64,000 nucleotides of DNA, from IMG/VR virus record IMGVR_UViG_3300045988_092126; one strand, 5' to 3'. The notes beneath the pieces were generated by a model. The model ran no database searches. It was not told where the DNA came from and saw nothing but the letters and a program-made list of their open reading frames with translations. This DNA comes from a virus. Positions 1 to 15,845 of the stretch are shown in pieces (positions within the stretch are counted from its first letter, which is position 1; each line of letters opens with the position of its first letter). Both the position numbers and the translations under genes were made by a program.

Positions 1-2
1 CA

Positions 3-1233: not shown

Positions 1234-1251
1234 GAAAAGGAGATTTAGATT

Positions 1252-1596: not shown

Positions 1597-1609
1597 GGAG
1601 GTACAGCAG

Positions 1610-2647
1610 ATGCCATTTAATATTTTAGAATCAATCACACCGGAAGAAAGACTTAACTTTTCTCAGGATTTCAGCGTAAAAAGGCCGGGCATTCTTGACA
1701 CCATCTTCCCGGATGTCAAAACACAGTTTCTGAAAGCTGAATACTACAGACTTATGGCTGGACAGAGACTTCCAGAGGTAGCATTCGTTCATGCACTTGA
1801 TACTGAAGCAGAAATCGGAACAAGACCGGGCTTCGAAAAAGTCCTGACTGAAAAGCTCTTTATTAAGAGAAAAATCAATCAGTCTGAGAGATTACAGCAG
1901 GCAATTGAAAATGGTGTGCCGGATGATGAGAATTTAAAGAAATTTGTATTTGATGATGCAGCTAATCTGTTTGAAGGAGTTGTTGCTAGAGCAAATGTCA
2001 TGAAAGGCCAATTTCTTAGCACAGGTGTTGTAAAAATTAAAGAAAACAATGTGGATATGAGCATTGATTATGGCGTTCCGTCCGATGCAAAAGTAGAAAT
2101 GACAGACTGGTCTAAACCAGATGCAGATATCATGGGTGATATCCAGAAGATGGTCGCTATTGCAGAAGATAATGGATTTGTGGTAAACAAAGCCCTTACC
2201 TCTCTCAAAATGATTAACTATATGAGAAATAACACTGCAATGCAGACCGCAGTTTTAGGAGCAGCTAACAAACGTCTTCTGACCAAACAGGAACTCGCTA
2301 ATCTGCTTATGCAGGAATACGGAATCACAATTGATCGCTGCGACGAGAAATTCAAATTCAGAAAAGCGGATGGTTCTCTCAAAACAGGAAGATACTTCAA
2401 AGAAGATGTATTCACACTGTATGAAGCAGAGCCAAACGGTTCATTTGGTACTGGACTCTGGGGCGTAACACGAGAGGAACTTGAATACAGACAGTTTATA
2501 CAAGAAGAGAACCGTTCTTTCGTAACACTGTCTATGTGGGCCACTCCAGACCCTGTGGCAGTATGGACAAAAGCATCCGGTATGTTTGTTCCAGTAGCAG
2601 CAAAAGCTAATGGCGGTATCGTAATCGGTACCAAAGCGGGGGAATAA
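1610..2647 (+). CDS. major capsid protein (lambda gpE-like family)
   Basis: 345 aa with GGAGG RBS. Length and N-terminus (MPFNILESITPEERLNF...) fit the E-type capsid family. Position after scaffold/decoration genes. Confidence 0.8.
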   Translation: MPFNILESITPEERLNFSQDFSVKRPGILDTIFPDVKTQFLKAEYYRLMAGQRLPEVAFVHALDTEAEIGTRPGFEKVLTEKLFIKRKINQSERLQQAIENGVPDDENLKKFVFDDAANLFEGVVARANVMKGQFLSTGVVKIKENNVDMSIDYGVPSDAKVEMTDWSKPDADIMGDIQKMVAIAEDNGFVVNKALTSLKMINYMRNNTAMQTAVLGAANKRLLTKQELANLLMQEYGITIDRCDEKFKFRKADGSLKTGRYFKEDVFTLYEAEPNGSFGTGLWGVTREELEYRQFIQEENRSFVTLSMWATPDPVAVWTKASGMFVPVAAKANGGIVIGTKAGE

Positions 2648-2835
2648 ACGGGCATAGTCTCGACAAGAACAGCCAGTCACCATCTGTAGCAAGTGTTAAA
2701 CACAAGTATACAGAAAGCGAGCTGTCAAGCATGACAGTGGTTCAGTTGAAACAGCTCGCAAGTGACAATGGCTATGCCCTGACATCGACAAACAAGGCTG
2801 GTATTATCTCAGAAATTTTATCTCAGCAAGGGTAG
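2611..2835 (+). CDS. start-less ORF encoding a linker plus HeH/SAP-like motif; candidate -1 frameshift extension of the capsid protein (or a 34-aa peptide from ATG 2731)
   Basis: The -1 frame relative to the capsid gene is open for 74 codons from 2611 and overlaps the last 12 capsid codons. No ATG/GTG/TTG occurs before 2731. It ends ELSSMTVVQLKQLASDNGYALTSTNKAGIISEILSQQG. A G5 run at 2638-2642 sits just before the capsid stop. Confidence 0.4.
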   Translation, partial: WRYRNRYQSGGINGHSLDKNSQSPSVASVKHKYTESELSSMTVVQLKQLASDNGYALTSTNKAGIISEILSQQG

Positions 2836-2845
2836 GTGATCTTAA

Positions 2846-3172
2846 ATGGACGAACGGCTTGTAAATGATCTGAAAGAGTATCTATCCGATGATGCGGAAA
2901 CTGACGGTATGATTTCTTTGTCTGTGAAGCGTGCAATTCGTTCGTTCAAAAAGAAACGCAACTATCCGTCTGGATATACAGATGAAAAAATCAATACCGA
3001 TATGGAATACTGTTATGATTGCATATTTGATCTGGCTCTCTATTTCCTTGTGAAACAGGGGGCCGAGTTCCAAGAATCGCACTCTGAAAATTCAGTAAGT
3101 CGAAAATGGGAATCCGAAACGGAAATATATATCAATCATGGCGTTTTTCCGTTTGCAGGAAGTTTAATTTAA
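2846..3172 (+). CDS. head-tail connector protein (gp6-like)
   Basis: 108 aa. N-terminal LVNDLKEYL..DD.ETDGMI..SVKRAI pattern is typical of gp6-like connectors. Position after the capsid gene. Confidence 0.55.
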   Translation: MDERLVNDLKEYLSDDAETDGMISLSVKRAIRSFKKKRNYPSGYTDEKINTDMEYCYDCIFDLALYFLVKQGAEFQESHSENSVSRKWESETEIYINHGVFPFAGSLI

Positions 3173-3284
3173 TAAGATGGTTGGGTCACGTGGCACAGTA
3201 TTTTTGTCCTCCCGGAGTGCCGCTGGGTTGCTTATATTCAGTAGGGAAAAGCAAATGTTAAGGGAGTGAAGAAAGGAACTGGCG

Positions 3285-3596
3285 ATGGGATGTGAACATG
3301 AATGTTTTAATGAACACCGCATAGAAGAATTAGAGAATAGTCTTCGACAGATGCAAGAGAGACAATCCGACCGCCATAAAGAGTTTTATGAGCGTATCGG
3401 GGAACTGGAAAGAAAGACAGCATTAAGTGAGAATGACTTGAACCATATCAAGTCAACTGTGGATGAGATGAATAACAATATAAAGACTCTCATGGCAGTT
3501 CCAGGAAAGCGCTATGATACAATTATTGTATGTGTTATTACGGCAATTGTCGGCGCGGTTATCGGATTTATGTTAAACGGCATTCTTCCAGTTTGA
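3285..3596 (+). CDS. XhlA-like membrane protein
   Basis: 103 aa with an N-terminal heptad region (IEELENSLRQMQERQSDRHKEFYERIGELERK) and one C-terminal TM helix (TIIVCVITAIVGAVIGFMLNGIL). This is the architecture of PBSX XhlA. Confidence 0.5.
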   Translation: MGCEHECFNEHRIEELENSLRQMQERQSDRHKEFYERIGELERKTALSENDLNHIKSTVDEMNNNIKTLMAVPGKRYDTIIVCVITAIVGAVIGFMLNGILPV

Positions 3597-3625
3597 TTCC
3601 ACTTGTAAGGGAGGACGGTGGAAAT

Positions 3626-3880
3626 ATGAATTATACAGACTTTTCAGAAGATGAAAGAAAATTTTACTTAAAAGAAGCAGGATTCGATTCCAGAGAAGAA
3701 AAACTGTTTCGTTTACGGGTTTATGGCGAGAAAACACTATGGGAAGCAGCTGAACTTATGGGGTATAGTCCAAGAACCATAGACCGAATTAATAAAAGAA
3801 TAAAGAAGAAAATTTCTAAAGTTGCCCCGATGTACTGTCGGGGCTTTTCTTTGTATTGTGGCGAAAACGTGGCGAAATAG
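3626..3880 (+). CDS. sigma-70 region-4-like HTH regulator
   Basis: 84 aa from ATG 3626 (GGGAGGA RBS at 3609-3615). EEKLFRLRVYGEKTLWEAAELMGYSPRTIDRINKRIKKKI resembles a region 4.2 HTH. Confidence 0.5.
   Translation: MNYTDFSEDERKFYLKEAGFDSREEKLFRLRVYGEKTLWEAAELMGYSPRTIDRINKRIKKKISKVAPMYCRGFSLYCGENVAK
3824..3852 (+). terminator. intrinsic terminator
   Basis: GCCCCGA-tgtactg-TCGGGGC followed by TTTTCTTT. Lies inside the 3' end of the preceding ORF. Confidence 0.6.
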
Positions 3881-4035
3881 TGACGTTCAAAAACAGAGTT
3901 CCTTCCTATATAATATAATCATAGGAGAAAACACAATGATTATGTTAAGAAACCCTTACGAGGGTATATGGGAAAAGCATCGTTCTATAGATGATATGGA
4001 TATGATTCTTGAATCCCGGACAGGAGGAACAGATT

Positions 4036-4533
4036 ATGGCAGGTTATCCGTATTATCCGCAACAACCAATAATAAACAATCCATACGGACAGATACAGCC
4101 GTATCAGGACAGGCTGGCGCAATTGCAGAATAATTACCAACAGGCAATGCCTTATGGTCAAATACAGATGCAACAGTTACAGCCGGTTCCACAATCACCT
4201 ATGCTTCAAGGACAGATGGTGGATGGGATTGATACTGTAAAGGCTAAAGATGTGGATATGTCCGGCAATCCTGTTTACTATCCAAAAACAGACGGAACTG
4301 AAATTTACAGAAAACAGCTTCAATCCGATGGAAGGAGCAGAATTTTTGTTTACCGACTCGTAAATCCAGATGAACAGCAATCTAAGCAAGATGAAAAGCA
4401 GATTGATATTGAAGCAATGTTTAATCAGCTTCGGAATGATGTTTGTTCGGAGATTTCTGAAATAAAGAATATGTTTCCGACGCAGATGTCGGGGACATCG
4501 GAACCTAAGCAGAATGGAGGTAGGCAGAGATGA
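4036..4533 (+). CDS. Gln/Pro/Tyr-rich protein, unknown function
   Basis: Start chosen at ATG 4036 behind a GGAGGA RBS. N-terminus MAGYPYYPQQPIINNPYGQIQPYQDRLAQLQNNYQQAMPYGQIQMQQLQPVPQ, followed by an ordinary globular C-terminal half. Confidence 0.5.
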   Translation: MAGYPYYPQQPIINNPYGQIQPYQDRLAQLQNNYQQAMPYGQIQMQQLQPVPQSPMLQGQMVDGIDTVKAKDVDMSGNPVYYPKTDGTEIYRKQLQSDGRSRIFVYRLVNPDEQQSKQDEKQIDIEAMFNQLRNDVCSEISEIKNMFPTQMSGTSEPKQNGGRQR

Positions 4534-4775
4534 CATTCAATCCAAACGCCATGATGAAAAAGCAATTTGAGAAAATGATCTCTCAGAGGTTCGGAAGTGT
4601 TGACAACATGATGAACGATATGAGCAAATTTGCAGGTAACAATCCAACATTGAAAAATGCTTTGGATTTATATAAAAAAGGTGATACAGACCAGTTACAT
4701 CAAATACAGCAAAATGTATTTAATGAAAAGCACTTATCTCCAGATGGAATTATACAAAAATTCCTTGGATTATAA
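4530..4775 (+). CDS. hypothetical protein
   Basis: 81 aa with GGAGG RBS. ATGA start/stop overlap with the upstream gene. Confidence 0.45.
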   Translation: MTFNPNAMMKKQFEKMISQRFGSVDNMMNDMSKFAGNNPTLKNALDLYKKGDTDQLHQIQQNVFNEKHLSPDGIIQKFLGL

Positions 4776-4871
4776 CACTTCCCCACAATTGGGTGATTAA
4801 AAATCGCTACAATTCGGGACGACAGCCGCGGATGTCTCCTATTGTAAATAAAATTTAAGGAGACTAAAAAC

Positions 4872-5681
4872 ATGATGAATGGTTCAAATTATAGTCTTAG
4901 CGACATTGCTGCCGCTACAGGCTCTAATAATCGCGCCAATGATATGTGGGGCGGTGATGGCTTTTCACTTATCTGGCTCGTCCTGATCTTCGCAATCTTC
5001 GGCTGGGGAGGTTTTGGCGGCTGGGGCGGCGGCTTTGGCGGTAACGGTGGAAACGGTGCGAACGGTGCCGGTTTCCAAGGATGGGCTACCCGTTCAGATA
5101 TTAATGAGGAATTCGCCCTTAATGATATTCAGAATGGTATCAGAGGTATTCAGCAGGGTATCTGCGACAGCACGTATTCTCTTAACAATACCATGCAGAG
5201 TGGCTTTAATGGTATGAATGTCGGAATGCTTCAAGGCTTCAACGGCGTTCAGCAGGCAATCAATGCTGATACTGTAGCCGGTATGCAGAATACCAACGCA
5301 TTACAGTCTCAGTTAGCAAACTGTTGCTGTGAAACAAGAGAAGCTATACAGGGTATCAACTACAACCTTGCTACCAACACTTGTGCTCTCCAGAACACAA
5401 TGAACAACAACACCAGAGATCTTCTGGAAAACCAGAACAGCAACACAAGAGCAATCCTTGACTTCCTGACTAACGATAAGATTGCAACATTACAGGCAGA
5501 AAATACTGATCTGAAACGTGCTGCGTCTCAGGATCGTCAGTCTGCACTGCTTACAACTGCTATGGCTTCACAGACTCAGCAGTTAATCAATGCAATTAAT
5601 CCGGCGGCTATTCCGGCATATGTTGTTCCGAATCCGAATACCTATTACGGTGGATGCGGATGTAACAGCGGATGCTGCTAA
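4872..5681 (+). CDS. membrane-anchored Gly-, Asn/Gln- and Cys-rich protein, unknown function
   Basis: 269 aa with AAGGAG RBS. One TM helix flanked by Gly runs (GGDGFSLIWLVLIFAIFGWGGFGGWGGGFGGNGGNGANG), a long N/Q-rich helical region with CCC and C motifs, and a C-terminus YYGGCGCNSGCC. Confidence 0.6.
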   Translation: MMNGSNYSLSDIAAATGSNNRANDMWGGDGFSLIWLVLIFAIFGWGGFGGWGGGFGGNGGNGANGAGFQGWATRSDINEEFALNDIQNGIRGIQQGICDSTYSLNNTMQSGFNGMNVGMLQGFNGVQQAINADTVAGMQNTNALQSQLANCCCETREAIQGINYNLATNTCALQNTMNNNTRDLLENQNSNTRAILDFLTNDKIATLQAENTDLKRAASQDRQSALLTTAMASQTQQLINAINPAAIPAYVVPNPNTYYGGCGCNSGCC

Positions 5682-5711
5682 GTAACTCACCCTTAGAGGT
5701 TGACTAATTCT

Positions 5712-5743
5712 AAGAGGTGGGTTGCGGCTCACCTCTTATTTTG
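5712..5743 (+). terminator. intrinsic terminator
   Basis: AAGAGGTG-ggttgcggct-CACCTCTT followed by ATTTT. Confidence 0.6.
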
Positions 5744-5759
5744 ATTGAGAGGTAAAGAT

Positions 5760-6185
5760 ATGAGTTGTAAAAATGTTTGTAAGCTCTGCAACCATCTTGT
5801 AATCAGCCAAGCCGTTGCGTTTACAGGAGGCAATCTTGTAATCACACTTCCGGCAGGCAGTTACAACAATGGAGAGAAATATTGTATTGTTGTTGCGCAA
5901 AGCATACCGGAAGCCACTACAATTACTGCTCCGGTAATGATTCAGATAGGAACAGGAACAACTTTGTATCCGCTAGAGAATCGTTGCTGCGCACAGGTTA
6001 CGGCTTGCGGAATAAGAACCAGAACAAAGTACGCAACCAGAGTAGCTACAAGTGCAACCGGCGGAGTATTCAAGATGTTAGGAAATCCGGCTTGTAGTCC
6101 AAGTAACAATTTAACAGCAATTGATGGTACAGCCCCAACGACAGACACACCTGTTACACAGGCTGCCAGAAAGGGGGCAATGTAA
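5760..6185 (+). CDS. Cys-rich small protein, unknown function
   Basis: 141 aa from ATG 5760 (GAGAGG RBS). MSCKNVCKLCNH..., internal CC and four further Cys residues, and a Thr/Ala-rich, beta-like composition. Confidence 0.5.
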   Translation: MSCKNVCKLCNHLVISQAVAFTGGNLVITLPAGSYNNGEKYCIVVAQSIPEATTITAPVMIQIGTGTTLYPLENRCCAQVTACGIRTRTKYATRVATSATGGVFKMLGNPACSPSNNLTAIDGTAPTTDTPVTQAARKGAM

Positions 6186-6811
6186 TGCATAAAGTTGCAA
6201 TGGAAATGGGAAAATGGGCTATGGAAAAAGCCAAAGCACATGGATTTGACAATCTTAGTTCTCAGGACTGGGATGATCTGAAAGATTGCTTAGAAGCGGT
6301 AAAATGCGCAATCTGTGCAGATAAAGATTACAGAATCGTAGAAGCTATGGACGAATGTGAACAGGAAGAGAAGTATCTTGGACGCATGGGATATGACAAC
6401 TATCGTTACGCAAACGGCAGATTTGCACCAAAAGGCAGAGGAAGCCGAATGGGATATATGCCGTATCTCCATATGCAGGATGACGACTGGGTAAGTGAAT
6501 ATCCGAGCAATCCAGAGTTTGAACGTAATATGTACCGCATGGGCTATCATCCAGACCGTAGTGATATGAGAATGGACGGTATGAACAATAGGCAATCCAG
6601 ATATGGTGAAACCTACGACAGATACAGCGAGAATCGCAGACATTACCATGATTCCAAAGATGCTGAATCTAAGAGAAAAATGGACGATTCCATGAAAGAG
6701 TATACAGAAGATATCATCCGCAATATGAAAGAAATGTGGGATGATGCAGACGCATCAATCAGACAGCAGATGAAAACTGACTTAACACGTTTCATACAGC
6801 AGATGAATTGA
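6185..6811 (+). CDS. hypothetical protein with RMGY repeats
   Basis: 208 aa with TAATG overlap with the upstream gene. Has four (G)RMGY motifs, an Arg/Tyr/Asp/His-rich centre and a Cys cluster (CLEAVKCAIC) near the N-terminus. Confidence 0.5.
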   Translation: MHKVAMEMGKWAMEKAKAHGFDNLSSQDWDDLKDCLEAVKCAICADKDYRIVEAMDECEQEEKYLGRMGYDNYRYANGRFAPKGRGSRMGYMPYLHMQDDDWVSEYPSNPEFERNMYRMGYHPDRSDMRMDGMNNRQSRYGETYDRYSENRRHYHDSKDAESKRKMDDSMKEYTEDIIRNMKEMWDDADASIRQQMKTDLTRFIQQMN

Positions 6812-6827
6812 ATATGAAATGAATTTT

Positions 6828-6860
6828 GCCCTTGTTACAGGAATGTAGCAGGGGCTTTTT
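6828..6860 (+). terminator. intrinsic terminator
   Basis: GCCCTTG...CAGGGGC stem (one G-U pair) followed by TTTTT. Confidence 0.5.
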
Positions 6861-6886
6861 AGTTGAGAAAAGGATGGTGATAAGCC

Positions 6887-7273
6887 ATGCTAAGACAATT
6901 TTACATGAACGGCGACCTATGGAGGGTGCAGTTTGTATCTCCGCATGACAGCGTGTTAATTGACCGTACAGGCAATAGAACACTTGGAGTATCGGATTAT
7001 TCCACACATATTATTTCAATCGCAAATAACCTGTATGGAGAACTTCTGAACCGTGTATTTATTCATGAGCTAGGGCATTGCGTGATGTTCAGTTATGGTC
7101 TATTGCCAGAACTTCATCGTATGGTCAAGAAACGGTATTGGGTGGATGCAGAGGAATTTGTATGCAATATTCTGGCAGACTATGGACAGTTTGTTATTGG
7201 CACAGCCAGAGATATTTTAGGAAACCAGTTCACATATGTAGCTCCCATTGGGGCAGAAAGGATGATTGCATAG
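6887..7273 (+). CDS. putative zinc metallopeptidase (HExxH)
   Basis: 128 aa with FIHELGHCV (HExxH) at the centre. Size and layout resemble small SprT/ImmA-type phage peptidases. Confidence 0.5.
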   Translation: MLRQFYMNGDLWRVQFVSPHDSVLIDRTGNRTLGVSDYSTHIISIANNLYGELLNRVFIHELGHCVMFSYGLLPELHRMVKKRYWVDAEEFVCNILADYGQFVIGTARDILGNQFTYVAPIGAERMIA

Positions 7274-7516
7274 ATGGCAAAAGCAGAAAACACAATTATT
7301 TTTGATGGCATTCAGTACAATCCCGGTGATGAATTGCCGGATTTAGGCAGTTGGGTATGTACAGATGCAAGAGGTATGGTTCGTGATTACGAGGGACTTT
7401 CAAAAGACGTGTCAAAGCTCCCGCATTATGTACAGAGTGGTTCTTCGGCGTTGTGCCTTGATACTTCTGAATTATACGAATATCACAAACCTACTGATAC
7501 ATGGTACAAACTGTAA
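7274..7516 (+). CDS. hypothetical protein
   Basis: 80 aa. The ATG abuts the upstream stop. GAAAGGA RBS. Confidence 0.4.
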   Translation: MAKAENTIIFDGIQYNPGDELPDLGSWVCTDARGMVRDYEGLSKDVSKLPHYVQSGSSALCLDTSELYEYHKPTDTWYKL

Positions 7517-7529
7517 AGGAGAAGCGCAT

Positions 7530-9773
7530 ATGGCATTAACAGCAAAGAAAGTATATGCAATATTAAAACGCCAGATTTCCGATATGGAAGCAAAATTAAA
7601 TAGCCCTGTAAGATACAGAGGTACAGTTGCGACTGCTGATTTGCTTCCATTAAATCCAGACATTGGCGATATGTACAATATCGAGTCTAAATCTATTTAC
7701 GGCGAAGCAGGAATGAATGTGGCATGGAACGGCGTAGTATGGGACACTATGGGCGCCCCGATTGATATGTCACTTTACATTAAATCAAACGAATTAGCGG
7801 ATTGGGTAAAACAGCAGAACAAGCCGACATATACAGCTGAAGAAGTTGGAGCGTTGCCGGCTGATACAAAGATTCCAAGCAAAACCAGTGAATTGCAGAA
7901 TGACTCTGGATTCTTGACTAAAATTCCAGACAATTATCTTTTCGAAACAGACAAAACACTGAACGTATCTGGAAAAGCTGCTGACGCAAAGGCTACCGGA
8001 GATAAAATCACAGAATTGTCAGCTGATATATCAAATAAATTGAATAAGAACCAAGGTTCGGAAAACTCTGGCAAGATTGCCGGAATTAACGAATCTGGCG
8101 ATATCGTTCCGATGTTTCCAGTAAGCGTAGATTACAACGAAGAAACAAACTGCCTTGAGTTTGGGTCTGATCAAAAAATGGAGCTTAATAAAGGTATCAA
8201 CCTTGATAGCACTCTCACGAAGACTGGATATGCCGCTGATGCAGGCGCAGTTGGAGAAATAACTAATTCACTAAAGGAAGATTTGTATGTTAAAACTTAC
8301 AACATTTTTGATGTTAATTTTTTACCTCGAGCATTCATTCCTCTCACAGGCTCTCACGGCGGTGAACTGTTTCTTGATAATAATGATAATTATTCGGCAA
8401 CAAATGAAACTATTAATGTTCTTCCGAATACTCAATACACCTTTTCAAATGGTAGTGAATCTATCCCTTATGAGTTACAGTTAAGTGTTATTTTTTATGA
8501 CAAAGATATGAGGTTCTTAGGTTATGCAAGTAACACCATTAATAATTTTTCAAAATTTTTTAAATTTACAACTATTGAAAACACTAATCATCTAAGATTT
8601 CAACTTCGTTCCACAGGAAAAGGCTCGGATATTCCTAATATAAAAAAATGGCAGTTAAACGAGGGTAATCTATTACCTTATTTGGATAATTATGTGTTAA
8701 ATTGTTCAACGGATAATATTGGAAATGAATTAACCGATATAAACATTGATAATCCACAGGTCAGAGATTTTGTTGAAGATGTTGATTACACAAATCAAGA
8801 ATACACAATAACACAAGTTGGTACATATTCTGCACCATCTGTTTATTATAGAAAAGATTGTGGTTTTCCAATGGTTGTTAAATGGAAATTAAATAGAGAT
8901 ATAAAAAATCAAATATTATATATTTCTACAAACAAATTAATTCCTATTGCTGATACAGTTGCTGTGAAATCATATGATATTCCTTGTGGAATAAGTGATT
9001 TTGCTGTATATAATTTAATCCCAAATGCAACATATTACTATAAAGTTTGTGGTACTGATTTTGACAACAATTTAATTGTAATTAAAGAAGGGTGTTTTAC
9101 CACTATTGGACAAGTGCATATGTTAAAAATTGACGGATTAAAAAATGTTCGTGATTTAGGTGGTTGGCTTACGCCAAATGGTAAAATTAAATACGGATTA
9201 TTATTTAGAGGTTGCGAACTTGATGATACCGGAGTCGGTGTGGAATTAACACATGAAGGTAAAAAAGAACTTTTTGATAGAATAAGAATAAAAACTGACA
9301 TTGATTTAAGAACGGATGTTGGTAATACAAAATCGCCTATCGGTACTCTTGTTGATTATAATTGTTATCCTATTCAACCATATGATACAGGTTTGAAAGA
9401 CACTATAACAAAAGGATTAATAAAATCTATTTTTGAAAAAATTGAAGAAAAGTTATCAAAAAGTAATGCGATATATTTCCATTGCCAAGGTGGTAGAGAT
9501 AGAACTGGAACACTTGCTTTTTTGATTCTAGGTGTTTTAGGTGTGAGCGAATCCGATATAGCAAAAGATTATGAACTTACAGAATTTGCGTATGCAAGTT
9601 ATAAGGCTGATAATCCGAATACGTCTAGGAAGTTTGCTCAATATGTATCTATGGTAAGTTATATTAAAACTTTCAATGGGGCAACATTTAATGATAAGAT
9701 TATTAGTTATCTTTTGAGCATCGGAATTAGTCAAGCCACTATTAACAATATTAAGTCGTATATGGTTGCTTAA
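7530..9773 (+). CDS. fiber-like structural protein fused to a C-terminal protein-tyrosine-phosphatase (CX5R, Y_phosphatase3-like) domain
   Basis: Start at ATG 7530 (AAGGAG RBS). The N-terminus YRGTVATADLLP..GDMYN and the SGKAADAKATGDK / TGYAADAGAVGE motifs are typical of prophage fibers. The C-terminus has NVRDLGGW (about 9143) and the P-loop HCQGGRDRTG (9480-9509). Confidence 0.7.
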   Translation: MALTAKKVYAILKRQISDMEAKLNSPVRYRGTVATADLLPLNPDIGDMYNIESKSIYGEAGMNVAWNGVVWDTMGAPIDMSLYIKSNELADWVKQQNKPTYTAEEVGALPADTKIPSKTSELQNDSGFLTKIPDNYLFETDKTLNVSGKAADAKATGDKITELSADISNKLNKNQGSENSGKIAGINESGDIVPMFPVSVDYNEETNCLEFGSDQKMELNKGINLDSTLTKTGYAADAGAVGEITNSLKEDLYVKTYNIFDVNFLPRAFIPLTGSHGGELFLDNNDNYSATNETINVLPNTQYTFSNGSESIPYELQLSVIFYDKDMRFLGYASNTINNFSKFFKFTTIENTNHLRFQLRSTGKGSDIPNIKKWQLNEGNLLPYLDNYVLNCSTDNIGNELTDINIDNPQVRDFVEDVDYTNQEYTITQVGTYSAPSVYYRKDCGFPMVVKWKLNRDIKNQILYISTNKLIPIADTVAVKSYDIPCGISDFAVYNLIPNATYYYKVCGTDFDNNLIVIKEGCFTTIGQVHMLKIDGLKNVRDLGGWLTPNGKIKYGLLFRGCELDDTGVGVELTHEGKKELFDRIRIKTDIDLRTDVGNTKSPIGTLVDYNCYPIQPYDTGLKDTITKGLIKSIFEKIEEKLSKSNAIYFHCQGGRDRTGTLAFLILGVLGVSESDIAKDYELTEFAYASYKADNPNTSRKFAQYVSMVSYIKTFNGATFNDKIISYLLSIGISQATINNIKSYMVA

Positions 9774-9868
9774 CTAAAGAGGGCTTTAGTTAACTATTAA
9801 AACCACAGGCACAGCGCATTTAATCATTATAAACAGTTGACAATAAATAACAGATATGGAGGAATCAC

Positions 9869-11071
9869 ATGAAAACGCAGAAAACAAAAGGATTTTATGA
9901 CCGTGAAAATGATACGGTACATATTTTTATTCCGCCTGCTCCGACAGAATCGGAGAGAGGTGGAATTACTGCAAAAGAAAAAACAACGGAATCCCTCGAA
10001 GTTACTATTGATTCAGCTACGGGGAAAGCATATGTAGCACTCGACAAAACACTTTCAAAGACAGGCGAGGCGGCGGATGCAGCAGTTGTAGGCGAAAAAC
10101 TCACATCAATGGGTGTCGCAATTGAAAATGTAAAGGAAGATAAAGCCGATAAAACATCTCTTGCACAAACCGACAGAAAGCTTGATGCACTCTGGAAACT
10201 CAATCAGGGTATCAGCTATGAATTTCAGACAGATGAAGCAGAAGCATATCAGAAAACGGTTCCGAGTGGTGCAAAGATGGTAAGCATTAAAAGTATTGGC
10301 GGTAAGACGATTGTCTGGAATCAGTTAAATTTGAATAACGAAAATTCTGTTACGAAAAACGGTATTTCTTTTATAAACAATAAGGACGGTTCGTGGACAA
10401 TAACTGGAACTTGTAGTACATCTAATGGCGGCAGTGCTGACGTACTAATATACGGATTTGCAGTTAAATATGTATCAGGTCATAAATATTTAGTTAAAGC
10501 CGATAAATATTCTGATGGAAATTATGGTTTTGCAATTAACGGCAGGTCTTACCCACTAAAAAAAGCAATAATTATTAATTACGCTTTTAATCCAGTAATA
10601 TTTGTAAACGACAAGGCAACCGTGGATAACGTTACGATGCGAATGAATATTTTCGACCTCACCCAAATGTTCGGCGCAGGTAACGAACCATCCACCCCAG
10701 AGGAATTCGAAGCTATGTTTCCAGCAGACTATTATCCGTACAATGCAGGCGAGTTGATGAGCGCACCTGTGAATGAAGTTGTATATTTAGATACCAAAAA
10801 TCAAGAAACATCATATCCAATCCCACAAGCCATTCTTGACCTAGAGGGTTATGGAGAGAGTGGGAATTTTGTTGATTTTGTGGAAAAGAAATACCACAAA
10901 GGGGACAGGACGATTGATATATCAGACATTATGGGAGATACATTCCAACAACCTCTTGAAGTTGAAGTAGGCGGTACACTGACGTTCAAAAACAGCAACG
11001 GTAATGATTACAGAATCCCTGTACCAAGCTCAGAGGAATATGTAATATCTTTAGCGGAGGTAGCAAAATGA
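9869..11071 (+). CDS. fiber / receptor-binding-like protein
   Basis: 400 aa with GGAGGA RBS. Shares the LSKTGEAADAAVVGEK fiber motif with the preceding gene. AT-rich central part. Confidence 0.55.
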   Translation: MKTQKTKGFYDRENDTVHIFIPPAPTESERGGITAKEKTTESLEVTIDSATGKAYVALDKTLSKTGEAADAAVVGEKLTSMGVAIENVKEDKADKTSLAQTDRKLDALWKLNQGISYEFQTDEAEAYQKTVPSGAKMVSIKSIGGKTIVWNQLNLNNENSVTKNGISFINNKDGSWTITGTCSTSNGGSADVLIYGFAVKYVSGHKYLVKADKYSDGNYGFAINGRSYPLKKAIIINYAFNPVIFVNDKATVDNVTMRMNIFDLTQMFGAGNEPSTPEEFEAMFPADYYPYNAGELMSAPVNEVVYLDTKNQETSYPIPQAILDLEGYGESGNFVDFVEKKYHKGDRTIDISDIMGDTFQQPLEVEVGGTLTFKNSNGNDYRIPVPSSEEYVISLAEVAK

Positions 11072-11220
11072 CTGAAATGCAGAAGAAAATGATAGAGAAA
11101 CTTGGTCTGGCTGAATCAGACTTTGAGAAAAAAGAAACGGTGGTAAGCAATGAAGAACGTATCAATGACCTTGAGATTGCTGTCTGCGAACTGCTTGAAA
11201 CACTTGGGAATGCTGAATAA
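11068..11220 (+). CDS. small protein downstream of fiber genes (XkdW/X-position)
   Basis: 50-aa ORF (MTEMQKKMIEKLGLAESDFEKKE...) with ATGA overlap with the fiber gene. Below the ORF-track length cutoff. Confidence 0.35.
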   Translation: MTEMQKKMIEKLGLAESDFEKKETVVSNEERINDLEIAVCELLETLGNAE

Positions 11221-11236
11221 GAAAAGGAGAAATAAA

Positions 11237-11413
11237 ATGATGGCAAAAGTATATTTTAACAGATTGATCGTAGGAACTATTACATATGATGCAATTCCTG
11301 AGAAATATCAGGATAAAGTAAGAGAATATGGTATTGAGTATGTGAAAAAAGGAAAACTTCCTGTAGAAGAATATGAAATGCTGTATAAAGAGGAATATCC
11401 AGAGGGTAAGTAA
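11237..11413 (+). CDS. XkdX-like small phage protein
   Basis: 58 aa from ATG 11237 (AAGGAGA RBS). ...YVKKGKLPVEEYEMLYKEEYPE matches the V.KGKIT.EEY..ITG pattern of the XkdX family. Confidence 0.5.
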   Translation: MMAKVYFNRLIVGTITYDAIPEKYQDKVREYGIEYVKKGKLPVEEYEMLYKEEYPEGK

Positions 11414-11554
11414 TTAACACCAGTTTAAAAAATTGAACAAACAGGAGAAAATCAAAATGGAATTTAATATCAAGACCAGGCTTGCTCATGCTTGGAGGGC
11501 GTTAATTATTGACTATTGGACACCAATAATATATAATGATTATAAATTCATTAT

Positions 11555-11746
11555 ATGGAGGTGAGTTCGATAAAAGTAGAAAGAAATATCATGATTAACA
11601 AAGCTGGTGGAAACGCAGGAAAAGAATCTGTCAACTATAAAATATCACTTCCGTCAGAAGCAGTTCGGATGATAGGTGTTACCAAAGAAGACAGAAAAGT
11701 AATTCTCGAATATGATGAAGAGAAAATAACAATCAAAAAAGCATAA
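11555..11746 (+). CDS. AbrB/SpoVT-like (MazE-fold) DNA-binding protein
   Basis: 63 aa. ISLPSEAVRMIGVTKEDRKVILEYDEEKITIKK fits a swapped-hairpin AbrB-type domain. Start uncertain (11555 or 11591). Confidence 0.45.
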   Translation: MEVSSIKVERNIMINKAGGNAGKESVNYKISLPSEAVRMIGVTKEDRKVILEYDEEKITIKKA

Positions 11747-11867
11747 TAAAAAGGAGTTAGGTTCCCGACTACCAATCAAAAAAAACCTAACTCCAACACC
11801 ACAAAGGGTACAGTATTATTATAACATGGTACTCTCCCTTTGTGAACCCAAAAGGAGGGTATTTTTT

Positions 11868-12863
11868 ATGAGAGATAAATTCGTGAATGGGTTCATGACA
11901 AAACTGTATGGAGAAATTCCGGAAGAGTATCTGGAAACGATCAGAAACAAACTGGCGTTGTATGTAAATGATTTTGATATCAGTCAAAGAGAAACAGCAG
12001 TTGTAAAGTATACTGGATATTTGCCGGATTTTTACAAAACTTACATTGTAAGTAGAAAAATCGAGGGTTTGAGTAAAAAGACGCTCGAACTCTACAATCT
12101 TTATCTGAATGATTTCTTTTTCACATTCAATAAAAAAGCTGAAGATATTACCTCAAATGACATTCGTGTATATCTGTATAATGCTCAGGAAAGCAGAAGT
12201 CTAAGTAATCGAACACTTGATAGCCGCAGAACTGCCATTCATGCATTTTTCGAATGGGCTGCAAACGAGGGATATGTGGGCAAAAACCCATGCAGATCAA
12301 TCAAAAATATCAAATATGAGCGTATAGAAAAACAACCTCTGACAGATATGGAACTGGAAAGAATCAGGCAAGCTTGCGAAACCGTACGTGAAAAAGCACT
12401 GGTTGAATTTCTGTATAGTACCGGAGCCAGGGTTACAGAAGTGTGTGGTGTAAAGAAAACAGATATAGACATTTACAAAGGTGAAGTAGTTGTTTTGGGG
12501 AAAGGCAACAAGCATAGAACAACATACCTAAACGCTCGTTGTAAATTACTTTTAAAACAATACTTTGCAATTAGAGATGATGAATCGGAATATCTTTTTG
12601 TAAGTGAAAGGAAACCACATAAGGTACTCAAAAAAGAAGCAATTGAAAGAATTGTACGAATAATCGGTGAACGGGCAGAACTGGACAGACCTCTAACACC
12701 GCATCTATTTAGGCATACTCTTGCGACTCTTATGCTTCAAAGAGGTACGCCGATTACTGAGGTGCAGAAGATTCTTGGACATGTCAACATTAACACGACA
12801 ATGATCTATGCAAAGGTATCTGATGAAGATGTAAAAGTGTCTCATATGAAATATGCAATATAA
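11868..12863 (+). CDS. tyrosine recombinase, XerC/XerD-like
   Basis: 331 aa from ATG 11868 (AGGAGGG RBS). SAM-like N-domain, ARVTEV (Arg I), HLFRHT (H-x-x-R) and GHVNINTTMIYAKV (His plus catalytic Tyr). Confidence 0.85.
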   Translation: MRDKFVNGFMTKLYGEIPEEYLETIRNKLALYVNDFDISQRETAVVKYTGYLPDFYKTYIVSRKIEGLSKKTLELYNLYLNDFFFTFNKKAEDITSNDIRVYLYNAQESRSLSNRTLDSRRTAIHAFFEWAANEGYVGKNPCRSIKNIKYERIEKQPLTDMELERIRQACETVREKALVEFLYSTGARVTEVCGVKKTDIDIYKGEVVVLGKGNKHRTTYLNARCKLLLKQYFAIRDDESEYLFVSERKPHKVLKKEAIERIVRIIGERAELDRPLTPHLFRHTLATLMLQRGTPITEVQKILGHVNINTTMIYAKVSDEDVKVSHMKYAI

Positions 12864-12886
12864 GATTTTTGAAGGGAGAAATCGCT

Positions 12887-13285
12887 ATGAGAGGATTGAA
12901 ACGCCAAAAACAGGCAGTGTATTGGTCAAGGGTAACTGAAGACCTTGACGGGATAGACACAATCAAAACGTACCAAAAGCCAGAATTACATCACCTCTCC
13001 GTATCTGCGACTGCCGGAACGCCAGAGGAATTATCCGCCGGGTACGTCCCTGATTACGATAGGTACATCACGAATTTTGACCGTAGCTTCAAACCGCAAA
13101 TTGCAGATGTGTTCTGGATAGACTGCAAACCGGAATTGAACGAATCTGGAGAACTTATCTTAGGCGAAGGCGGGGAGCCTACAGTTCCGCCAGATTACCG
13201 TCTGAAAAAGATTCTCGATACCCAGAAAGGCAATGTGGCACGATACGGTATTAAGTACACAGGAGATGGCTCAGATGGCGAATAA
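12887..13285 (+). CDS. head-closure / head-tail adaptor-like protein (by position)
   Basis: 132 aa with GAAGGGAG RBS. First gene of the resumed head-tail joining series. No diagnostic motif. Confidence 0.35.
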   Translation: MRGLKRQKQAVYWSRVTEDLDGIDTIKTYQKPELHHLSVSATAGTPEELSAGYVPDYDRYITNFDRSFKPQIADVFWIDCKPELNESGELILGEGGEPTVPPDYRLKKILDTQKGNVARYGIKYTGDGSDGE

Positions 13286-13793
13286 GACTATCAAAATGGA
13301 ACTGTCGCATAAATCTATACAGGACACAATAAAACAGCTCAGGCAGTACCAAAACAGCCTTAAAAGTAAGAATGAATTATTTGTTCGTCGACTGTCTGAA
13401 CTTGGAATCCCTGTCATTGATCAGAATATTTCACTGTCGCAGGGCGATTCCGATAAAAATCACAGCACCTACATCAAAATCAATTCGTTCGGCGATTACT
13501 CACAAGCAACTTTAGTATGTGAGGGCGCAGGTCTGTTGTTCATAGAGTTTGGTGCCGGAATCCATTACAATACCCCGGCAGGCTCAAGCCCGCACCCGAA
13601 AGGGCAGGAACTTGGATATACAATCGGTTCTTACGGTCATGGTAAAGGAAAAAACGATTCTTGGACATACACGTCTGAAACTGGCGAATGGGTAAGATCA
13701 TATGGTACCGAAGCCACTATGCCGGTTTATAAAGCAAGCATGGAAATCATACAGAACATTCGGAAAATCGCAAAAGAGATATTTTCTACTTAA
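13275..13793 (+). CDS. HK97 gp10-like tail-component protein (tentative)
   Basis: 172 aa from ATG 13275 (AGGAG RBS 9 nt upstream). Overlaps the upstream gene. Size and position fit gp10-family neck proteins. Confidence 0.4.
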   Translation: MANKTIKMELSHKSIQDTIKQLRQYQNSLKSKNELFVRRLSELGIPVIDQNISLSQGDSDKNHSTYIKINSFGDYSQATLVCEGAGLLFIEFGAGIHYNTPAGSSPHPKGQELGYTIGSYGHGKGKNDSWTYTSETGEWVRSYGTEATMPVYKASMEIIQNIRKIAKEIFST

Positions 13794-13843
13794 ACTTCAT
13801 ACTGAAACATACTATTCAAAATGGTATACTATAACATATAAAA

Positions 13844-13871
13844 GCATCTGCAAACAAGCAGGTGCTTTTTT
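13844..13871 (+). terminator. intrinsic terminator
   Basis: GCATCTGC-aaacaa-GCAGGTGC followed by TTTTTT. Confidence 0.6.
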
Positions 13872-13903
13872 CATGCAAAAACATAGAAAAGGAGAATGTA
13901 AGC

Positions 13904-14542
13904 ATGTTAGTAGAAACAATGATTATCAGAAAAGTAGAAACGAGCATTGTCACAAGCCTAGATGTCGCGGAGACTTTTGGAAAAGAACATAAAAGAGTAT
14001 TGCAGGACATTAGAGAATTAGGATGCAGTGAAGAATTCGGACAGCACAATTTCGTGCCTTCCTCATATACAAGTATTCAGAATAAAAAGCAACCTATGTA
14101 CTGTATGACAAGAGATGGGTTCACACTTCTTGTTATGGGATACACTGGCGAAAAAGCCATGAAATTCAAAGAAGGATATATCCGCCAGTTCAATGCAATG
14201 GAAAAAGTTCTTTTAGGGAAAATAAGAGAACGAGACAAAGGCATTGCAGTGAGACAGGCGTTGACCAATGCACTTAAAGAATCTCAAGAAAATGAGAGAA
14301 TACATGGTCATGCGTATTCGACATATACAGATATGGTATATCGTACATTGTTTGGCAAAACTGCAAAACAACTTAGAGAAGAAAAGGGAATCTCTACCAA
14401 GGACAATCTGAGAGATTTCCTCACTGAAGAAGAATTAAAAGCAGTTCAATCAAAAGAAATGCTTGTTAGCGGATTGATTGACTGTGGATGGGGATATTCT
14501 CAAATAAGAGATTTCCTAAAGGACAGTCTCAAAATATGTTAG
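13904..14542 (+). CDS. Rha-family phage regulatory protein
   Basis: 212 aa from ATG 13904 (AAGGAGA RBS). VTSLDVAETFGKEHKRVLQDIREL... is the characteristic Rha N-terminal domain. Confidence 0.8.
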   Translation: MLVETMIIRKVETSIVTSLDVAETFGKEHKRVLQDIRELGCSEEFGQHNFVPSSYTSIQNKKQPMYCMTRDGFTLLVMGYTGEKAMKFKEGYIRQFNAMEKVLLGKIRERDKGIAVRQALTNALKESQENERIHGHAYSTYTDMVYRTLFGKTAKQLREEKGISTKDNLRDFLTEEELKAVQSKEMLVSGLIDCGWGYSQIRDFLKDSLKIC

Positions 14543-14560
14543 AACAGGCGAGGTGATTCT

Positions 14561-14968
14561 ATGCCAGACACGATCAATAACCCAGTATCAGAAGTATTTT
14601 CTAGGTGGAGTAAAGATATTCAACCAGCAGTCGGCAAAGGCAATTTTTCCATGGAGAAAAGCCAGACAATAGCATCTGGCAAAACGAAATACGCCAGATT
14701 GTTCATGATGGGGAATCCCACGCAGTCGACAAGTCTTGAAGGTCACGAATGTGCAACAATTCTTTCGTTTCAAGTGGAAAGTTACGCATCTGGAACGAAG
14801 GCTTTATCGACTGCATATGAAATCGACAGCAAGAGCCATCAGGCTATGGTTTCAATGGGATTTCGCCGGACATACGGGCCAGAAGAGGTTGCAAACTCTG
14901 AAAAGAGTTTTAAACGAATCATAAGCCGGTACAGCAGAATTTACACCGGGCAATTATTGGAAGCGTAA
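14561..14968 (+). CDS. tail completion / terminator-like protein (by position)
   Basis: 135 aa, placed between the gp10-like and major tail genes. No diagnostic motif. Confidence 0.3.
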   Translation: MPDTINNPVSEVFSRWSKDIQPAVGKGNFSMEKSQTIASGKTKYARLFMMGNPTQSTSLEGHECATILSFQVESYASGTKALSTAYEIDSKSHQAMVSMGFRRTYGPEEVANSEKSFKRIISRYSRIYTGQLLEA

Positions 14969-15009
14969 CAGCTTCTATTTTTTATACCAAAAAGAAAGGA
15001 GAGTGTCCT

Positions 15010-15222
15010 ATGAGTAAAGATAAATTACAATGGCTGAAAGCTGCGGGAATCAGAGCTGTTAAGACAATTGCTCAGACAGCAGTTGCAACAATCGGAACCG
15101 CGACAGTCCTTGGAAGCGTTGACTGGAAGATGGTCGTATCCGCGTCCGTTCTTTCCGGCGTTTTATCCTTGCTTACATCTGTAGCAGGGCTTCCAGAACT
15201 GAAAACAAGCGCAGATGAATAG
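15010..15222 (+). CDS. holin, r1t / LL-H-like family
   Basis: 70 aa. IRAVKTIAQTAVATIG....VDW......LSGVLSLLTSVAGLPE matches the r1t-type holin pattern (AIKTFAQ...VDW...LTS.A.G.P). Two hydrophobic helices. Confidence 0.65.
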   Translation: MSKDKLQWLKAAGIRAVKTIAQTAVATIGTATVLGSVDWKMVVSASVLSGVLSLLTSVAGLPELKTSADE

Positions 15223-15267
15223 AAAGGACGGTGATCCTTTTATCTCCCGGATGCAGGGTTACGCATC

Positions 15268-15288
15268 AGAGCCACATGGCTCTTTTTT
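15268..15288 (+). terminator. intrinsic terminator
   Basis: GAGCC-acat-GGCTC followed by TTTTTT. A weaker hairpin lies at 15223-15240. Confidence 0.55.
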
Positions 15289-15327
15289 ATTGTGATTTTA
15301 TAGCTGAAAAGCAGAAAGGAGCCGAAT

Positions 15328-15822: not shown

Positions 15823-15845
15823 ACATATTTGGGAGGACAAATAAT

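Follow-up and report, generated by a model that had tools for sequence, protein, structure and literature searches.

A gene for a modular fibre-type protein that ends in a cysteine phosphatase domain was identified in the window, a stretch of 64,000 nucleotides from the IMG/VR virus record IMGVR_UViG_3300045988_092126. The protein (747 amino acids plus stop, 7530..9773 on the plus strand, from the list of open reading frames) combines a constant N-terminal anchor with a C-terminal part that is replaced by other enzyme-like tips in related variants. With modest confidence, we favour the explanation that it is a modular virion fibre whose swappable tip is a receptor-modifying cysteine phosphatase removing phosphomonoesters from surface glycans. 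A tip of this kind would bring a so far undescribed enzyme class to phage attachment proteins. Its incorporation into the virion, its position there, its catalytic activity and its substrate are what we infer from the evidence below.

The gene lies within an open reading frame listed at 7365..9773 (plus strand). The ATG at 7530 is almost certainly its true start, because the stop codon of the upstream gene (7514-7516) is followed by a Shine-Dalgarno sequence, AGGAG (7517..7521, plus strand), read off the sequence 8 nt before this ATG. Identical proteins of 747 amino acids were called on many metagenome contigs of 72-80 kb. The conserved N-domain motif YRGTVATADLLP...GDMYN (7614..7679, plus strand) consists of YRGTVATADLLP at residues 29-40 (7614-7649) and GDMYN at residues 46-50 (7665-7679), and is also present in Enterocloster phage proteins with 44-53% identity. 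The collar motif occurs twice in the fibre-phosphatase, around residue 150 (..NVSGKAADAKATGDKITEL..) and ending at residue 252 (..TKTGYAADAGAVGEITNSLKEDL), and once in the downstream gene, at about residue 68 (..SKTGEAADAAVVGEKLTSM..). The N-domain motif and the repeated collar motifs shared with the next gene, as described in the first-pass annotation, were thereby located in the sequence. That next gene (9869..11071, plus strand) is a second variable fibre-like gene; its product has 400 amino acids here and 520 in the related locus L003, with a breakpoint at 10779-10806, and it had no match in Pfam, PHROG or NCBIfam.

Residues 1-252 (7530..8285, plus strand) form the constant anchor and shaft, ending in ...GYAADAGAVGEITNSLKEDL. 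Among the top matches this anchor was 96-100% identical and bore unrelated C-termini; the tips carried on the same 252 residues in other variants were an SGNH esterase, an M14 peptidase, a BNR sialidase, a pectate lyase and a DUF6273 domain. The view of a fibre-type protein with a conserved anchor and exchangeable enzyme-like tips is borne out by this distribution. The only PHROG match of the anchor was phrog_25468, of unknown function (residues 43-111), a search against PDB sequences gave no match even at E<=10, and neither the fibre nor the neighbouring genes matched NCBIfam. The anchor has no detectable likeness to any characterised fibre in PHROG, PDB or NCBIfam, which counts against the favoured explanation. 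Neither of the earlier designations, 'typical prophage fibre' and 'tail', is proven, given that the N-terminus matched only the PHROG of unknown function and that the gene is situated between the head and tail modules.

The exchange of the tip is evident from the viral locus L002, which has a near-identical backbone. Window positions 1-8284 were 100% identical to L002 and positions 9770-19776 were 99.7% identical, and only 8285-9769 differed, being swapped for 1238 bp of unrelated sequence; both breakpoints in the DNA, 8284/8285 and 9769/9770, are clean. The exchangeable phosphatase cassette thus delimited (8286..9770, plus strand) encodes residues 253-747. The GC content of 8292-9773 was 30.0%, compared with 40.3% in the N-terminal part and 39.5% in the window. 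An AT-rich, swapped-in segment had been proposed for 8280-9100; its low GC content and its exchange hold, but the limits were too small, and the swapped unit comprises the beta-domain, the FN3-like domain and the phosphatase jointly, not the middle beta-rich part only. All variants diverge directly after KEDL in the junction or collar motif (8214..8285, plus strand), the putative site of cassette exchange, and other anchors join the phosphatase cassette after the similar motif G(A/K)AAD(S/A)K..G..I..LK.DL. These shared junctions suggest that the tips are exchanged by recombination at the collar motif. A shufflon or invertible cassette was considered on account of a tyrosine recombinase encoded a short way downstream (11826-12863) and rejected; no convincing inverted repeats were found in 4500-15500, and the variation is between genomes.

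The first domain of the cassette is a beta-sandwich (8286..8720, plus strand), all-beta in both AlphaFold2 models with a core pLDDT of 65-89; modelled separately, this first beta-domain had a pLDDT of 56. Foldseek returned weak matches only (CBM4, CBM29 and Asp3, all E>=5e-3), and our guess from the model is that it may be a carbohydrate-binding module. That no firm match to such a module was obtained counts against the favoured explanation. The FN3-like domain that follows (8871..9107, plus strand; model pLDDT about 85-97) matched fibronectin type III domains in Foldseek, for example 2h41 with TM 0.67 and rmsd 2.4. It is always N-terminal to the phosphatase in this clade, and PF00041 is annotated in some relatives.

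The Y_phosphatase3 domain (9126..9770, plus strand, residues 533-747) was recognised by Pfam, by Foldseek and by a profile search against PDB. Pfam PF13350 matched residues 533-705 with E=2.7e-27 and 96.7 bits, relative to a cut-off of 22.2, and the profile search against PDB matched 8dhi (E=1.3e-17). The AlphaFold2 model had an overall pLDDT of 81, rising above 90 in the phosphatase domain, and in Foldseek it matched PtpB (2oz5/1ywf) and a C. difficile PTP (8dhi/8dhj) with E~4e-9 to 4e-8, prob 1.0 and target TM of 0.53-0.61. Structure prediction had been put forward earlier as a check of the C-terminal domain, and the PtpB-like fold of the model, together with the Pfam match, identifies a bona fide CX5R phosphatase domain at the C-terminus. 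The dual-specificity family DSPc (PF00782) reached 17.1 bits, below its cut-off of 33.5, and neither CBM20 nor CBM48 was matched in Pfam. The parallel that had been drawn with PTP-like phytases does not hold at the family level, PF14566 not being among the Pfam matches of the fibre-phosphatase.

Both hallmark motifs named in the first-pass annotation are present, the P-loop exactly at the coordinates given there. NVRDLGGW (9144..9167, plus strand, residues 539-546) marks the start of the phosphatase domain, and its N, R, D and first G were invariant in 96/96 aligned relatives. The catalytic P-loop HCQGGRDRTG (9480..9509, plus strand, residues 651-660) was likewise invariant in H, C, G, D and R in 96/96, so that the patterns H-C-x2-G-x-D-R-T-G and N-x-R-D-x-G are kept throughout, phage relatives included. 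The catalytic set of the predicted enzyme is complete, with Cys652 as nucleophile, Arg658 and the P-loop Asp657. The latter is the equivalent of MptpB Asp165, inside the P-loop, and was also invariant (96/96); the P-loop Asp is essential in MptpB, and its role was described for MptpB, Lmo1800 and LM1 (PMC3091653). A general-acid Asp outside the P-loop, in the region of MptpB Asp82, was discarded because the alignment column was gappy and unconserved, and the P-loop Asp was relied on instead.

Invariance of all catalytic residues in 96 relatives would be unexpected if the phosphatase fold acted purely as a binding module, recognising phosphorylated glycans as a lectin does and turning over little or no substrate. 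Binding alone suffices for receptor-binding tips, and a second P-loop Cys (HCQGGCDRTG) present in many phage fusions could, through an extracellular disulfide, inactivate the enzyme; all the same, we hold a pure lectin to be unlikely. Less probable still is an MptpB-like effector that, after delivery into the cell, would dephosphorylate phosphotyrosine proteins of the host, such as capsule BY-kinases, or lipids. PtpB and the C. difficile PTP are the nearest solved structures, and the family bears the name 'tyrosine phosphatase'. The signature of the MptpB-like atypical lipid phosphatases, however, is HCXXGKDR[TA]G with a strictly conserved Lys (PMC3091653), and this diagnostic residue is absent from the present clade: Arg656 takes its place here, and the column contained A in 54, R in 26, C in 15 and K in 1 of the 96 sequences. 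Membership in that group was rejected on this replacement. The cellular relatives are moreover exported and glycan-associated, the domain sits farthest out on a fibre tip that is exchangeable with esterases and sialidases, and no ejection-protein features were seen. The earlier suggestion that phosphotyrosine on capsule kinases is cleaved after entry thus fits poorly with a distal fibre tip and with extracytoplasmic relatives.

Relatives of the FN3-like and phosphatase module were among the matches of a genome scan with a trimmed alignment; a scan of genome contigs with the full fibre-phosphatase protein gave no match. Nearly all cellular relatives of the pair carried signal peptides or lipoboxes, and they were located in a Bacteroidales capsule locus and beside O-acyltransferases. 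A NAGPA 'phosphodiester glycosidase' was fused to the module in 22 of the 72 loci examined, and further fusion partners were GH127, GH18, CBM_4_9, F5/8-type-C and dockerin domains. Because the related phosphatases are exported by bacteria and fused to sugar-degrading enzymes, the phage tip would, on our favoured explanation, strip phosphate from host surface sugars. These fusion and neighbourhood clues come from relatives only 30-48% identical, which counts against that explanation. A NAGPA-type enzyme yields exactly a glycan phosphomonoester, as is established for the lysosomal uncovering enzyme (described in PMC13474241). The lack of a NAGPA-like gene in the window is a further point against; the sole tblastn match among 84 viral loci, in L085, was weak (29% over 66 aa, E=0.003) and was rejected. 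Nor are phosphate monoesters known as common constituents of Gram-positive wall polymers, which weighs against it as well.

Phosphate-bearing surface polymers had been suggested as the substrate from the outset, and this fits with exported relatives, CAZy-type domain fusions and capsule loci. As for the teichoic acids named in the suggestion, a PTP-fold monoesterase is, from established knowledge of the fold, chemically unlikely to cleave their phosphodiesters directly. The phosphatase fold would be a true depolymerase if it directly cut phosphodiester-linked polymers of the wall, whether teichoic-acid-like or made of sugar-1-phosphate repeats. Phosphodiesters abound in the wall polymers of Gram-positive bacteria, and the sister cassettes hold depolymerase-type folds (pectate lyase, sialidase). 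The characterised CX5R enzymes are known to act on monoesters or phosphoanhydrides and not on diesters; furthermore, bacteria fuse the phosphatase module to a separate phosphodiester glycosidase, and therefore the phosphatase would handle the monoester step only. We consider direct depolymerisation improbable.

Fusions of this kind are widespread. Relatives were encoded at 203 IMG/VR loci, and an exhaustive search returned 8529 cluster representatives. Among the best 139 new clusters of these 8529, 44 were long, without signal peptide and with the phosphatase at the extreme C-terminus, and their N-termini were phage-fibre-like or made of collagen repeats. The phosphatase cassette was found behind at least five unrelated fibre-type N-termini, at 58-94% identity, and it adjoins tail-fibre-like genes in other phages. 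A match to 'Enterococcus phage Efs 1-1-1' was set aside, being an UNVERIFIED record of bacterial-looking DNA with a 250-aa ALP-type phosphatase (HCFAGKDRTG) and no fibre. Whether the fusion is already common in annotated families thus has a divided answer: it is widespread in metagenomic phages, yet machine-annotated only. The statement that a cysteine phosphatase on a phage fibre is undescribed stands, no paper describing one having been found; the literature searches on phage-fibre phosphatases, PF13350 in phages, 8DHI and glycan phosphatases in Bacteroides returned nothing relevant.

The distribution of anchors and tips also bears on whether the protein belongs to the virion. It might be a non-virion soluble enzyme freed at lysis, altering neighbouring cells or debris against unproductive adsorption or superinfection, and the holin and lysogeny genes that neighbour the gene are in line with this. 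An anchor conserved at 96-100% in the top matches over dozens of tip variants points instead to a conserved site of protein-protein docking, and the cassette also follows classic tail-fibre N-termini and collagen-like shafts; a soluble enzyme therefore seems to us a poor prospect.

The gene follows the head genes, with the major capsid at 1610-2647, and precedes the tail genes, with the tape measure at 16779-21755. It has an integrase and an antirepressor as neighbours and is some 12 kb ahead of the distal tail genes, a setting that counts against the favoured explanation. A neck (collar-whisker) fibre at the head-tail junction, serving as an accessory adhesin or enzyme, is a serious if tentative candidate; it would have the same architecture at another position in the virion and would leave the chemistry unaffected. 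The gene order speaks for it, with the gene after the head-completion genes and ahead of the major tail and tape-measure genes, as do the lactococcal NPS proteins of 500-900 aa, nearly identical in their first ~180 aa and variable in their C-termini (PMC6669499). On the other side, a BppU-like N-domain was not among the Pfam or PHROG matches, the integrase and antirepressor island in the same interval means that the gene order is perhaps scrambled, and in the Enterocloster phage PMBT24 the gene with the homologous N-domain closes the baseplate module, after the lysin. The PMBT24 paper contains no virion proteomics. As to its position, a neck or collar fibre and a tail fibre are equally possible. 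When 24 kb were compared with isolated phages by megablast, only two unannotated faecal fragments were retrieved. The carrier is an uncultivated, probably temperate siphovirus of the human gut, and its host is likely a Gram-positive member of the Clostridia.

The action of the fibre-phosphatase under the favoured explanation may be depicted as follows: Residues 1-252 would serve as the constant anchor and shaft, closing in the collar motif, and residues 253-747 as one exchangeable tip of beta-sandwich, FN3-like domain and Y_phosphatase3. At the cell surface the tip would bind a phosphate-bearing polysaccharide of the capsule or the wall and hydrolyse its phosphate monoesters via a phospho-cysteine intermediate. 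It would thereby act as a receptor-modifying (receptor-destroying) enzyme, as the deacetylase and sialidase tips of the sister variants may do. More broadly, and tentatively, the FN3-like domain with HCxxG(A/R/C)DRTG may define a so far unrecognised family of glycan phosphomonoesterases that gut and rumen bacteria deploy outside the cell, captured by many unrelated phages as a fibre tip that erases phosphates from capsule or wall polysaccharide receptors. In such a family the bacterial module, often paired with a phosphodiester glycosidase, would be engaged in dismantling phosphodiester-bridged or phosphorylated glycans.

Host range is determined mainly by phage receptor-binding proteins with enzymatic tips, which also supply biotechnology with depolymerases, and the tips described so far are, to our knowledge, all glycosidases, lyases, esterases or peptidases. 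If the broader proposal of a captured enzyme family is true, the phosphatase tip would be a chemically new type of receptor-modifying enzyme in phages and a new host-range determinant in the gut virome. A cysteine phosphatase tip would also mark glycan phosphates as a determinant of recognition and resistance in gut Firmicutes and Bacteroidales. The surface chemistry of these bacteria is poorly known. A testable function is also suggested for the exported 'tyrosine phosphatases' of bacteria, which number in the thousands (8529 clusters), namely clearing the phosphate left by the phosphodiester glycosidase. Near-identical natural phages differing in this cassette alone offer a ready-made host-range experiment.

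Several known systems resemble the fibre-phosphatase in part. The PTP-like phytases (such as Selenomonas PhyA) share CX5R chemistry on a non-protein phosphomonoester; they belong to another Pfam family, and nothing ties the phage module to inositol phosphates. The MptpB-type enzymes (PtpB 1YWF/2OZ5, Listeria Lmo1800, C. difficile PTP 8DHI) are of the same Pfam family and fold, and have in common with it the HC-x2-G-x-DR-TG P-loop with its internal catalytic Asp, the N-x-RD-x-GG motif and the absence of a WPD loop. They differ in the P-loop Lys, which is Arg here and Ala, Arg or Cys across the clade, and in that an FN3-like domain always precedes the phosphatase in the present clade. They are furthermore cytoplasmic or host-directed effectors, whereas the relatives of the present clade are exported and glycan-associated and the domain is here on a phage fibre.

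With the enzymatic-tip receptor-binding proteins (SGNH/acetyl-esterase tailspikes, sialidase and lyase depolymerases) the protein shares a conserved anchor and an exchangeable C-terminal enzyme. In those the enzyme is a glycosidase, lyase, esterase or peptidase, whereas here it is a predicted cysteine phosphomonoesterase, for which no published example was found, and the gene lies away from the distal tail and baseplate genes, not at the position by which receptor-binding proteins are recognised. The NPS proteins of the lactococcal 936 and P335 phages are alike in length, in joining a constant N-terminus to a C-terminus that varies and is CBM- or enzyme-like, and in being encoded away from the distal tail genes (PMC6669499). 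No BppU-like N-domain was among the Pfam or PHROG matches of the fibre-phosphatase, and no sequence similarity to the NPS proteins was detectable. NPS tips are CBMs, beta-helices or esterase-like folds and not phosphatases, and these collar fibres are non-essential (PMC6669499).

The FN3-like and phosphatase module has homologues in the secreted NAGPA-LRR-Y_phosphatase3 proteins of rumen and gut Bacteroidaceae, themselves uncharacterised, with 40-48% identity over the phosphatase core. These are cellular proteins of about 1080-1470 aa with a phosphodiester glycosidase of their own, whereas the phage protein is without one. Laforin, SEX4 and LSF2 combine a CX5R phosphatase with a carbohydrate-binding module and take phosphate monoesters off polysaccharide. 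They are eukaryotic, intracellular enzymes of another PTP branch, with CBM20/CBM48 modules that are absent here, so that the likeness is functional only and lies in the principle proposed for the phage fibre tip.

The window is the genome of an uncultivated human-gut siphovirus-like phage, and megablast of 24 kb against isolated phages found no close isolate. ORF 7365..9773 (+) proved real in the ORF list and likely starts at the 7530 ATG; the stop codon of the preceding gene occupies 7514-7516, and an AGGAG is located at 7517-7521, 8 nt 5′ of this ATG. The 747-aa protein has been called with identical sequence on many 72-80 kb metagenome contigs. All motifs reported in the first-pass annotation were read in the sequence where it had placed them: YRGTVATADLLP (7614-7649), GDMYN (7665-7679), NVRDLGGW (9144-9167) and HCQGGRDRTG (9480-9509). 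The collar motif (..G.AADA..G..), described there as shared with the next gene, occurred twice in the fibre protein and once in that gene. The CX5R phosphatase recognised at the C-terminus is a member of Y_phosphatase3 (Pfam, aa 533-705, E=2.7e-27; score 96.7 bits, cut-off 22.2). The low-GC stretch was real but wider than claimed, encompassing the whole C-terminal two thirds (30.0% GC in 8292-9773 versus 40.3% in the N-terminal part).

Structure prediction, proposed earlier for the phosphatase region, gave a PtpB-like fold. The AlphaFold2 model of aa 255-747 (pLDDT 81) displayed a beta-sandwich, only moderately well modelled, an FN3-like domain and the PtpB-like phosphatase domain, and Foldseek matched it to M. 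tuberculosis PtpB and a C. difficile PTP (E 4e-9 to 4e-8) as well as to FN3 domains. Modelled separately, the beta-sandwich yielded a poor model with weak CBM-like matches only; a carbohydrate-binding role is at most possible.

These domains form an exchangeable cassette (aa 253-747, 8286-9770). In contig L002, window 1-8284 was 100% and 9770-19776 99.7% identical, and 8285-9769 alone differed, 1238 unrelated bases standing in its place; this amounts to a clean exchange of the cassette between backbones that are otherwise almost the same. The constant N-terminal anchor (aa 1-252, 7530-8285) recurred in the protein search with unrelated C-termini, most top matches being 96-100% identical over the anchor. 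Precomputed Pfam annotations of these C-termini included SGNH/GDSL esterases, M14 peptidase with DUF2817, BNR sialidase, pectate lyase 3 and DUF6273, and all variants diverged directly after ...GYAADAGAVGEITNSLKEDL. The same cassette (58-94% identical) was found on at least five unrelated N-termini (HylP/Mtd-like types, 'YVGNGSTRTFPF' types and short coiled coils), each time after a similar collar motif. No inverted repeats suggesting an invertible system were seen. The anchor resembled no characterised fibre in PHROG, PDB sequence and NCBIfam searches, which weakens the fibre-tip reading. Its high conservation disfavours a soluble enzyme outside the virion, and we infer that the fibre-phosphatase is a virion component.

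Both the fibre gene and another fibre-like gene (9869-11071, 400 aa) are placed after the genes for head completion and before those of the tail, with the major capsid at 1610-2647 and the tape measure at 16779-21755. This gene order, together with the constant-N/variable-C architecture, matches the neck passage structure of lactococcal siphophages (PMC6669499), and a fibre at the neck rather than at the tail is a possibility to which we give somewhat less than an even chance; against it, the baseplate module of the Enterocloster phage PMBT24 closes with the homologous N-domain gene. The second fibre-like gene carries the same collar motif and had no Pfam, PHROG or NCBIfam match; its C-terminal part is likewise exchanged in a sister phage, where the protein has 520 aa (breakpoint 10779-10806). 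The interval separating the head module from the tail module also contains genes for a tyrosine recombinase (11826-12863), a Rha-type antirepressor (13862-14542) and an r1t-type holin (15010-15222), an arrangement uncommon among siphoviruses. Directly 3′ of the tape measure, a 1688-aa protein (22198-27264) combining BspA-type LRR_5 repeats with seven Big_3 domains probably serves as the distal-tail or adhesion protein, and no match to a classical Dit/Tal turned up. A 269-aa protein (4872-5681; phrog_16490, function unknown) is encoded shortly 5′ of the fibre genes; it has a hydrophobic N-terminus rich in Gly and Trp, a central part rich in Q and N, and an end rich in Cys (..YYGGCGCNSGCC). A 128-aa HExxH protein (FIHELGHC; 6887-7273), encoded two genes ahead of the fibre and kept in sister phages, matches a PHROG annotated as peptidase. 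Further downstream are an NlpC/P60 endolysin (28614-30005), a LytTR-type response regulator on the opposite strand (30118-30933 (-); receiver and LytTR DNA-binding domain) adjoining an unknown 267-aa gene (31072-31875), and a second integrase-family gene (52920-54149).

A pattern scan located relatives of the FN3-like plus phosphatase pair at 203 IMG/VR loci. ORF reconstruction gave a large family with a shared N-terminus, collagen-repeat fusions and one 1129-aa fusion. An exhaustive phmmer search with aa 440-747 against 1.84 billion cluster representatives returned 8529 matches at E<=1e-3 and 416 at E<=1e-30. Among the 139 best new representatives, 44 were at least 480 aa long, without signal peptide and with the phosphatase at the extreme C-terminus, preceded by phage-fibre-like N-termini or collagen repeats. 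The fusion is thus widespread, though only machine-annotated; in BFVD, three phage proteins matching the model are named only 'tyrosine phosphatase family protein'. The first-pass annotation had doubted its own novelty should the fusion be common in annotated fibre families: it is common in metagenomic phages, but known there from machine annotation only, and literature searches found no published description, in agreement with its view that a cysteine phosphatase on a fibre was undescribed. About 30 IMG/VR loci besides L020, L035 and L050 encode 600-670-aa phage proteins sharing a ~50-aa N-terminus (MKKLYEE..VQDIA.AIR.KNG), followed by the FN3-like domain, the phosphatase, a pair of Ig-like repeats and a beta-domain at the C-terminus; here the phosphatase is therefore mid-protein, not a tip. 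Tail-fibre-like genes lie around the phosphatase gene in L035 and in a prophage of Lachnospiraceae. In a ~43 kb phage (L004/L005, 1265-9886) the phosphatase fibre comes after a giant 2873-3265-aa protein, whose L005 version includes an LPD23 polyvalent-protein domain. The UNVERIFIED record OR846620.1 ('Enterococcus phage Efs 1-1-1') resembles bacterial chromosomal DNA more than a phage, with genes for a signal peptidase, a Mga-like regulator, a YhgE/Pip-like membrane protein and an ALP-type phosphatase.

The closest non-phage relatives (30-48% identical) belong to gut and rumen Bacteroidales and Clostridia, as 330-400-aa FN3-like plus phosphatase proteins or much larger multi-domain proteins, nearly all with a signal peptide or lipobox. 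Three gene neighbourhoods were inspected: one relative lies within a Bacteroidales-type capsule locus with NusG/UpxY-like, rml, NeuB, CMP-sugar synthetase and O-acyltransferase genes, one adjoins two Acyl_transf_3 genes, and a tandem pair is near NDP-sugar genes. Domain fusions are more telling on the substrate. In 22 of the 72 genome loci examined (L103:4437-8792; L104, L107-L110, L113-L117, L119, L120, L128, L133, L134, L136, L140, L143, L149, L151, L165), secreted Bacteroidaceae/Prevotellaceae proteins of ~1080-1470 aa start with a NAGPA 'phosphodiester glycosidase' and end with the phosphatase; they also have LRR_5 repeats, and the Y_phosphatase3 domain comes together with its FN3-like domain. 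Other fusions involved GH127 with F5/8-type-C, CBM_4_9 with Big_2, GH18, and dockerin. A phosphodiester glycosidase takes the sugar off a sugar-1-phosphate diester and leaves a phosphomonoester, as established for the lysosomal uncovering enzyme (PMC13474241), which makes a phosphatase the logical next step. The NAGPA fusion, which is conserved and seems to be undescribed, suggests a two-step removal of sugar-1-phosphate decorations. No phosphodiester glycosidase gene was found in the window, a weak point of the reading proposed below. That the phage phosphatase cleaves phosphodiesters directly is unlikely for a PTP-type fold and hard to reconcile with the extra domain that bacteria attach for uncovering diesters.

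The Lys of the HCXXGKDR signature defines the MptpB-type lipid phosphatases (PMC3091653). In this P-loop column, 96 sequences displayed A (54), R (26), C (15) and K (1), the query having Arg; the domain is therefore outside that subgroup. With this Lys missing, the relatives exported and the domain at the tip, an MptpB-like intracellular effector is disfavoured. So is a pure binding module, as the catalytic residues are invariant, the P-loop Asp being kept in 96/96. Most phage fibre-phosphatase fusions (proteins P0245-P0304) have a second P-loop Cys (HCQGGCDRTG or HCSGGCDRTG) at the position of Arg in the window protein, which might allow redox control via a disulfide with the catalytic Cys.

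We lean towards the cassette being a receptor-modifying tip, which would attach to a phosphorylated glycan of the cell surface and, using Cys652, take off phosphate monoesters, much as sister variants with deacetylase and sialidase tips would act on their own substrates. Such a phosphatase tip would surprise phage receptor specialists, is widespread and is directly testable.

The domain is neither a DSP-type glucan phosphatase nor a PTP-like phytase. Laforin and SEX4 are CX5R phosphatases tethered to glycan-binding domains, and the phage tip would share this working principle. In architecture, the fibre-phosphatase is like enzymatic phage receptor-binding proteins or like collar fibres of the neck passage structure; enzymatic fibre tips are known, and what is new, as far as we infer at present, is the chemical class of the tip enzyme.
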